A DNA stretch of 64,000 bases from Escherichia coli (GTDB taxonomy: Bacteria; Pseudomonadota; Gammaproteobacteria; Enterobacterales; Enterobacteriaceae), in the NCBI RefSeq assembly GCF_003334305.1, contig NZ_QOWS01000015.1, one strand, 5' to 3'. Shown here in pieces: positions 61,207 through 63,248 of the stretch (positions within the stretch are counted from its first letter, which is position 1; every line of letters starts with the position of its first letter). The position numbers were made by a program, and so were the translations under genes. The notes under the pieces are model-generated. The model was not told where the DNA came from. It searched no databases and was given only the letters and a program-made list of their open reading frames with translations.

Positions 61207-61313
61207 CATTTTGTCCTCATTATCCTTCCATTTTCGTGCTGCAAAGACTGCCACAATGTGAGGTCGCCGTCACCACTTCAACTGGCGAAAGCGCCCTCAT
61301 CCTGACATAATCC

Positions 61314-61329
61314 CTGTTCAAATCAACAG
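61314..61329 (+). promoter_or_regulatory. LexA-type operator immediately upstream of yoaA
   Basis: CTGTTCAAATCAACAG = CTGT-N8-ACAG, ending 9 nt before the yoaA GTG at 61338. Confidence 0.55.
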
Positions 61330-61337
61330 GGGGTAGT

Positions 61338-63248
61338 GTGACGGACGATTTTGCACCAGACGGTCAGCTGGCGAAAGCGATACCAGGCTTTAAGCCGCGA
61401 GAACCACAGCGACAGATGGCGGTAGCCGTCACCCAGGCGATAGAAAAAGGCCAGCCGCTGGTGGTGGAAGCAGGAACCGGTACGGGCAAAACCTACGCTT
61501 ACCTGGCTCCTGCGCTGCGGGCGAAAAAGAAAGTCATTATCTCGACCGGCTCAAAAGCGTTGCAGGATCAGCTCTACAGCCGCGATTTGCCAACAGTCTC
61601 AAAGGCATTGAAATATACGGGCAACGTGGCGCTGCTGAAAGGGCGCTCAAACTACCTCTGCCTCGAACGTCTCGAACAGCAGGCGCTGGCGGGGGGCGAT
61701 CTGCCGGTACAAATCTTAAGCGATGTGATCCTGCTGCGCTCCTGGTCTAATCAAACAGTCGATGGTGATATCAGCACCTGCGTCAGCGTGGCGGAAGATT
61801 CACAGGCGTGGCCGCTGGTCACCAGCACCAACGACAACTGTCTTGGCAGCGACTGCCCGATGTATAAAGATTGCTTTGTGGTCAAAGCACGTAAAAAAGC
61901 GATGGACGCCGATGTGGTGGTGGTAAACCATCATCTCTTTCTGGCGGATATGGTGGTTAAAGAGAGTGGATTTGGCGAACTGATCCCGGAAGCGGACGTC
62001 ATGATCTTCGACGAAGCCCACCAGCTACCGGACATTGCCAGCCAGTATTTTGGTCAGTCACTCTCCAGTCGACAACTGCTCGACCTGGCAAAAGACATCA
62101 CCATCGCTTACCGCACCGAATTAAAAGACACCCAGCAGTTACAAAAGTGCGCTGATCGTCTTGCCCAGAGTGCGCAGGATTTTCGTCTGCAACTCGGTGA
62201 GCCAGGTTATCGCGGTAACCTGCGTGAGCTGTTAGCTAATCCGCAAATTCAGCGGGCATTTTTACTGCTCGATGACACCCTGGAACTTTGTTATGACGTG
62301 GCGAAACTGTCACTGGGGCGTTCCGCCTTGCTGGATGCGGCATTTGAGCGCGCCACGTTGTATCGCACACGGCTGAAGCGGCTAAAAGAGATCAATCAGC
62401 CGGGCTACAGCTACTGGTACGAATGCACTTCGCGCCATTTTACTCTGGCTCTCACGCCGCTCAGCGTGGCGGATAAATTCAAAGAGTTAATGGCGCAAAA
62501 GCCCGGTAGCTGGATCTTCACCTCAGCAACGCTGTCGGTGAACGACGATCTGCATCATTTCACCTCGCGGCTTGGGATAGAACAGGCGGAGTCGTTGCTA
62601 TTGCCAAGCCCGTTTGATTACAGCCGCCAGGCGTTACTCTGTGTGCCGCGCAATCTGCCGCAAACCAACCAGCCAGGTTCTGCTCGCCAGTTAGCGGCAA
62701 TGCTGCGACCGATCATCGAAGCTAACAACGGTCGTTGTTTTATGCTTTGTACCTCGCACGCCATGATGCGCGATCTGGCCGAGCAGTTCCGCGCTACCAT
62801 GACGCTTCCCGTTTTGTTGCAGGGGGAAACCAGCAAAGGGCAACTGTTGCAGCAATTTGTCAGCGCCGGTAACGCGCTTCTTGTGGCAACCAGTAGTTTC
62901 TGGGAAGGGGTGGACGTGCGTGGCGATACATTGTCATTGGTGATTATCGACAAGTTGCCGTTTACCTCACCGGATGACCCGCTGTTAAAAGCGCGCATGG
63001 AAGATTGCCGTTTGCGCGGTGGCGACCCGTTCGATGAAGTGCAACTACCAGATGCCGTCATTACTCTCAAACAAGGGGTAGGGCGACTGATTCGCGACGC
63101 CGACGATCGTGGCGTGCTGGTGATTTGTGACAATCGGCTGGTGATGCGCCCTTACGGCGCGACGTTTCTCGCCAGTCTGCCGCCCGCGCCACGCACCCGT
63201 GACATTGCCCGTGCGGTTCGTTTCCTTGCGATACCATCCTCCAGGTAA
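61338..63248 (+). CDS. yoaA: DinG-family ATP-dependent 5'-3' DNA helicase YoaA
   Basis: 636 aa; Walker A AGTGTGKT, DEAH box (FDEAHQLP), Cys cluster CVSVAEDS..C..CPMYKDC; GTG start at 61338. Confidence 0.9.
   Translation: MTDDFAPDGQLAKAIPGFKPREPQRQMAVAVTQAIEKGQPLVVEAGTGTGKTYAYLAPALRAKKKVIISTGSKALQDQLYSRDLPTVSKALKYTGNVALLKGRSNYLCLERLEQQALAGGDLPVQILSDVILLRSWSNQTVDGDISTCVSVAEDSQAWPLVTSTNDNCLGSDCPMYKDCFVVKARKKAMDADVVVVNHHLFLADMVVKESGFGELIPEADVMIFDEAHQLPDIASQYFGQSLSSRQLLDLAKDITIAYRTELKDTQQLQKCADRLAQSAQDFRLQLGEPGYRGNLRELLANPQIQRAFLLLDDTLELCYDVAKLSLGRSALLDAAFERATLYRTRLKRLKEINQPGYSYWYECTSRHFTLALTPLSVADKFKELMAQKPGSWIFTSATLSVNDDLHHFTSRLGIEQAESLLLPSPFDYSRQALLCVPRNLPQTNQPGSARQLAAMLRPIIEANNGRCFMLCTSHAMMRDLAEQFRATMTLPVLLQGETSKGQLLQQFVSAGNALLVATSSFWEGVDVRGDTLSLVIIDKLPFTSPDDPLLKARMEDCRLRGGDPFDEVQLPDAVITLKQGVGRLIRDADDRGVLVICDNRLVMRPYGATFLASLPPAPRTRDIARAVRFLAIPSSR

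Follow-up and report, generated by a model that had tools for sequence, protein, structure and literature searches.

The LexA site of yoaA is already known from genetics published in 2021 (PMC8378479). Sutera et al. (J Bacteriol 203:e00228-21) joined luxCDABE to the 132 bp that separate yoaB and yoaA, and the resulting PyoaA::lux reporter was rapidly induced by azidothymidine (AZT). Most of that induction, and above all its early phase, was abolished by lexA3(Ind-), and mutation of the CTG(N)10CAG sequence, where (N)10 is TTCAAATCAA, left expression constitutively high. A second, slower induction in late growth phase survived lexA3, reaching ~30% of the wild-type level and 6-fold over untreated cells. 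It was absent in the box mutant, and the authors proposed an unknown route by which LexA repression is relieved (PMC8378479).

RNA-seq data from the same laboratory, published in PNAS in 2024 (PMC11228462, citing unpublished work of Ferrazzoli, Sass and Lovett), place yoaA among the classic SOS genes. It is listed there with an HI of 13 (from Courcelle et al. 2001), a 4.0-fold induction by AZT, a lexA dependence of 1.6-fold and an sspA dependence of 1.2-fold. In a multi-omics time course, also from 2024, yoaA is up within 10 min of damage and then declines (PMC11002266), and a review places the gene under LexA regulation (PMC11981726). The initial annotation of the DNA analysed here, made from the sequence, had proposed comparing damage induction of yoaA in wild type and lexA(Ind-); that experiment has in essence been published, with the result predicted (PMC8378479, PMC11228462). 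In the literature covered by our search, to which Courcelle 2001 and Wade 2005 do not belong, no report of an EMSA, footprint or ChIP of LexA at yoaA came up.

Two E. coli genes with weak or asymmetric SOS boxes, with which yoaA can be compared, are polB, with an HI of 13 and 4.7-fold induction by AZT, and dinG, which encodes the paralogous helicase, with an HI of 8.6 and 3.2-fold induction (PMC11228462). Like yoaA, both have an operator of the CTG-N10-CAG type near the promoter, a modest induction and a low dependence on lexA (PMC11228462). The yoaA box differs from theirs in being a perfect palindrome of 7 bp, with C/G rather than TA at the outer positions, and yoaA is also set apart by its unusual second phase of induction, independent of lexA3 (PMC8378479).

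We have analysed the yoaA locus within a 64-kb stretch of Escherichia coli chromosomal DNA, called the window. Boxes were scored with a LexA matrix of 20 positions giving a Lewis-type heterology (an HI-like score), built from 20 E. coli boxes, of which those of ruvAB and yebG were verified; both are identical in the window. These belong to the two companion SOS genes that the initial annotation had named, and each gene is indeed present with its LexA box:

8529-8548: LexA box of ruvAB, ruvA start at 8597, HI-like score 6.6
23790-23809: LexA box of yebG, yebG start at 23827, HI-like score 3.4

A CTG-N10-CAG core is common to the yebG, ruvAB and yoaA boxes, and the yebG box, like that of yoaA, comes near to the start codon, with its end 19 nt short of the ATG. 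The yebG and ruvAB boxes are much closer to the consensus, with scores of 3.4 and 6.6 against 13.6 for yoaA; the corresponding published HI values are 6.3, 7.6 and 13 (PMC11228462).

The yoaA promoter and its box

The 1-kb region around the yoaA site was found in 5425 of 5426 complete E. coli genomes, with 100% identity to many of them. Coordinates for yoaB and yoaA are those of the RefSeq annotation of a genome identical to the window. The genes are divergent, and the 131 bp between them, which house the yoaA promoter and the LexA box, are the same intergenic region as the PyoaA fragment of the lux fusion (PMC8378479). The features of the locus are as follows, with conservation referring to the 79 loci compared in the next section:

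60862-61206, minus strand: yoaB (RidA family), divergent neighbour of yoaA, from the RefSeq annotation
61282-61287, plus strand: CTGGCG, a weak candidate -35 element, with an 18-nt spacer to CATAAT and a TGGC core conserved in most loci
61303-61311, plus strand: TGACATAAT (TG-n-CATAAT), putative extended -10 element of yoaA, matching the sigma-70 consensus and invariant in 79 loci
61312-61331, no strand assigned: the LexA (SOS) box 20-mer CCCTGTTCAAATCAACAGGG, from its sequence, HI-like score, conservation and the published mutant
61329-61333, plus strand: GGGGG, a Shine-Dalgarno-like run seen in the sequence 4 nt upstream of the yoaA GTG and kept in most loci
61338-63248, plus strand: yoaA, encoding a DinG/XPD-family Fe-S DNA repair helicase of 636 aa with a GTG start, from the open reading frame and the RefSeq annotation

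The translation contains all the features of YoaA that had been noted from the sequence, namely Walker A (GTGKT), the DEAH box and a four-cysteine cluster (C...C..C..C). Its identity is confirmed by the match to the NCBIfam equivalog NF053712 (repair_DEAH_YoaA), which gives 922.5 bits over residues 3-630, against a cut-off of 680.

The probable -10 element of yoaA is TGACATAAT, with its hexamer at 61306-61311. From the geometry of sigma-70 promoters, transcription would be expected to start at about 61317-61319, inside the box, which would leave a very short leader of ~20 nt. A scan of 61100-61450 for consensus promoters and terminators found neither. The promoter model of that scan needs both hexamers, and the yoaA promoter, with its weak candidate -35 and its probable reliance on an extended -10, is of a type that the scan does not model.

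The core of the box is CTGTTCAAATCAACAG, a CTG-N10-CAG sequence at 61314-61329 on the plus strand, exactly where the initial annotation had read a fit to CTGT-N8-ACAG. The box begins 2 nt past TGACATAAT, and the 20-mer is a perfect 7-bp inverted repeat, CCCTGTT/AACAGGG. Given the inferred -10, the box would overlap or abut the promoter, as expected of an SOS box. At its other side it lies close to the GTG at 61338, as had been described, with a gap of 8 nt in place of the 9 nt given, and G61329 is common to the box and to the GGGGG run. The site is the one reported by Courcelle 2001 and Sutera 2021, with the same CTG-TTCAAATCAA-CAG 24 nt upstream of where the open reading frame begins and no difference (PMC11228462, PMC8378479).

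The mutant box of the published reporter can be read from its primer. Compared with the wild type, yoaALexAp1 (PMC8378479) carries 8 changes, at 61312, 61313, 61315, 61316, 61327, 61328, 61330 and 61331. These go beyond the CTG/CAG triplets named in the paper (PMC8378479), reaching two bases just past the -10 and two bases of the Shine-Dalgarno run. Some of the high expression of the box mutant could thus reflect an effect on the promoter. What was seen in lexA3 is independent of these extra changes.

The window and the K-12 cloning primer yoaApromoterGWF differ at 61224, with C in the window and A in the primer (CATTATCCTT compared with CATTATACTT), so the strain is probably not MG1655. The promoter and box segment at 61270-61345 is 100% identical in the K-12 derivative C600.

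Conservation in Enterobacteriaceae

Species-representative genomes were scanned with YoaA, and the best 80 of 557 relatives were kept, all of them Enterobacteriaceae. Upstream sequence is available for 79 of these 80 yoaA loci, and the comparison covers those 79. Within this set, drawn from the best 80 of 557, TGACATAAT is invariant in all 79 loci, and CTGGY is fixed 21 nt upstream of it in 46. CTG-N10-CAG is likewise present in every locus; counted from the start of TGACATAAT, it begins 11 nt further on in 77 loci and 12 nt further on in two, so that the box always begins 2-3 nt after the end of that element.

The sequence of the box is far from uniform, with 23 distinct versions among the 79 loci. 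Positions 3-5 (CTG) and 16-18 (CAG) are the same in every version, whereas in the spacer two to four different bases occur at each of positions 7, 8, 10, 11, 13 and 14. This is the signature of purifying selection on the recognition triplets. With CTG and CAG fixed near the -10 while the spacer varies, the yoaA box is thus supported as a LexA site. At positions 6 and 15 the pair is T/A in 45 loci, G/C in 23, T/C in 10 and G/A in one. LexA boxes tolerate either CTGT or CTGG, the ruvAB box being CTGG...CCAG, and the pattern would fit this tolerance and not strict base-pair covariation.

The Enterobacter/Lelliottia clade separates the box from the translation signals. There a 4-nt insertion lies between the box and the start codon, placing the box at -28 rather than -24, and the Shine-Dalgarno GGGGG is replaced by GAGAGAG (the insertion is found upstream of position 1501 in loci L036, L038, L039, L041, L044-L046, L049, L051, L052, L055, L057, L067, L071 and L075). 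The box is retained, and its register with the -10 is unchanged despite the changes in the Shine-Dalgarno sequence and in the position of the start codon. The box of this clade, CCCTGTGCAAAAATACAGTG, is closer to the consensus, with an HI-like score of 11.1, and 8.0 in L038.

Within E. coli, 4560 of 5424 complete genomes carry the 76-nt promoter and box segment with an identity of 99% or more. In the one variant that we inspected, the differences fall in the spacer between -35 and -10 and not in the box.

One locus, L005 (labelled E. coli SCPM-O-B-8794), has a region before the -10, at ~1400-1475, that is unrelated to the usual yoaB side. The AAGACTGCCA block is missing there, but neither TGACATAAT nor the LexA box is disrupted. 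The arrangement suggests a rearrangement or insertion that ends just upstream of the core promoter.

Other readings of the region

A second conserved block, AAGACTGCCACAATGT with the core CAAGACTGCCAYA, is found in the yoaB-yoaA intergenic region at 61244-61259, and lies 33-53 nt from the yoaB start in the enterobacterial loci (best 80 of 557 relatives). On the minus strand it could be the yoaB promoter (TG-G-CAGTCT), and on the plus strand it could be a second promoter or a regulator site for yoaA (TG-C-CACAAT). Its spacing in the loci does not clearly assign it to either gene. A sigma-54-like reading of the minus strand (TGGCAG-N-TTGC) was rejected by eye, as the spacing from GG to GC is 9-10 nt and not 12.

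The late induction by AZT persists in lexA3, so cleavage of LexA does not explain everything. In this region a further factor or promoter, acting together with LexA, could explain an induction that is independent of lexA3 and dependent on growth phase, and AAGACTGCCACA at 61244-61255 is the candidate element. This would add to the explanation by LexA and does not replace it. The residual induction in lexA3, at ~30% of the wild-type level and 6-fold that of untreated cells (PMC8378479), speaks for such a contribution, as does the block itself, which 63 of 78 loci (best 80 of 557 relatives) have 54 nt upstream of the -10. We nevertheless consider it unlikely. The block may be no more than the promoter of yoaB, read on the opposite strand; not every clade conserves its 3' part (WTGT), and the distance of the block from the yoaA -10 falls to 30 or 37 nt in nine loci. 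The dependence of yoaA on sspA is only 1.2-fold (PMC11228462), and none of our results points to a binding protein. It is correspondingly doubtful that AAGACTGCCAYA (61244-61255) is a second regulator site or promoter that takes the control of yoaA beyond a simple weak SOS operator, although such a role, if true, could account for the late phase of induction.

The palindrome might alternatively act in the RNA, where a hairpin in the yoaA leader would mask the first bases of the Shine-Dalgarno sequence and exert translational control, the likeness to a LexA box being secondary. RNA corresponding to 61311-61332 can indeed form a hairpin of -10.2 kcal/mol, with 8 bp in the stem and 6 nt in the loop, and this structure takes in the first Gs of GGGGG. 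However, the fold is no better than those of shuffled sequences (z = -1.14, with 30 of 200 shuffles folding as well), and positions 6 and 15 do not covary strictly in the 79 loci; on these two grounds we have rejected the hairpin. Moreover, with the -10 at 61306-61311, the expected start would lie inside the 5' arm, so that the hairpin would not be transcribed whole, and the published effects came from a transcriptional lux fusion (PMC8378479). Control by this hairpin is very improbable.

The score of the box has to be read against the background of the window. With our matrix it is 13.58, near the published HI of 13. The box departs from the consensus TACTG(TA)5CAGTA in its outer TA dinucleotides, which are replaced by CC and GG, and in TGTA, which becomes TGTT. 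Scoring with a LexA matrix was a check suggested in the initial annotation. It places the box at the weak end of functional boxes, with a score that by itself does not go beyond chance: 12 positions in the window equal or beat the yoaA box, against 7.0 +/- 2.8 in shuffled sequence, and most of the other positions scoring as well fall in coding DNA. The CTGT-N8-ACAG pattern occurs twice in the 64-kb window (in the yoaA box and in the yebG box at 23792) where 0.65 are expected, and at least two matches occur in 13 of 100 shuffles of the window. Thus the yoaA box is not set apart from background by its match to the pattern or by its score. It is marked out by its position, 2 nt past a conserved -10, and by its conservation. 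That the site fits a loose pattern by chance and regulates nothing would be in keeping with these counts but is very improbable, given that CTG and CAG are invariant in 79 loci and hold their distance to the -10 while the spacer varies, and that expression is altered both by mutation of the box and by lexA3 (PMC8378479).

The looser pattern CTG-N10-CAG occurs 30 times in the whole window, against 12.9 expected from dinucleotide shuffles, none of which reaches 30. The excess is likely to come from the frequency of the trinucleotides CTG and CAG in E. coli coding DNA, and not from extra LexA sites. By sequence, only three of the 30 read as LexA-like beyond the triplets, those of ruvAB (8531), yebG (23792) and yoaA (61314).

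Between yoaC and yoaB the matrix also has two matches on the minus strand, TACTGGATAACACACCATGA at 60573-60592 (score 12.0) and AACTATATAAATAACCATAA at 60694-60713 (score 12.7). Their scores are better than that of the yoaA box, but neither has the invariant CAG, and AACTATATAAATAACCATAA is without CTG as well, which makes LexA sites improbable here.

LexA repression at the yoaA promoter

We conclude, with a probability of about 0.93, that the palindrome serves the yoaA promoter as its LexA operator and that yoaA is a weakly repressed member of the SOS regulon. The operator is a weak one. The place of yoaA in the SOS response, as originally annotated, is upheld by the box mutant and lexA3 (PMC8378479), by the list of classic SOS genes (PMC11228462) and by the conservation across 79 loci. 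Set against a simple reading in terms of LexA are the lexA dependence of just 1.6-fold (PMC11228462) and the poor matrix score.

A LexA dimer on 61312-61331, directly downstream of TGACATAAT, would lie over the -10 at its 3' edge and over the transcription start, and when bound would block either the binding of RNA polymerase or the formation of the open complex. Following damage, or where replication gaps arise, RecA on single-stranded DNA promotes the self-cleavage of LexA, the weak yoaA operator is vacated early and transcription rises a few-fold, as the literature shows. YoaA then pairs with HolC (chi) at gaps.

The initial annotation had LexA sitting over both the promoter-proximal and the translation-initiation region. 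The overlap with the putative -10 and start is the relevant one, because LexA binds DNA and because the Enterobacter box stays with the -10 although the start codon has shifted relative to it and the Shine-Dalgarno sequence has changed. The box partially overlaps the Shine-Dalgarno sequence because the leader would be only ~20 nt long, and this overlap is probably incidental and not a means of translational control.

What our analysis contributes to the site already known is a conserved, putative extended -10, the footprint of the box across species, and the observation that the box is tied in position to the -10 and not to the start codon. It also indicates that scoring by matrix alone would not have picked out the yoaA box. 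As is already established (PMC8378479, PMC11228462, PMC11981726), LexA control of yoaA brings the repair helicase YoaA-chi into the DNA-damage response. HolC, a subunit of the clamp loader, is contested by YoaA and HolD, and therefore the level of YoaA must stay low until replication gaps arise.
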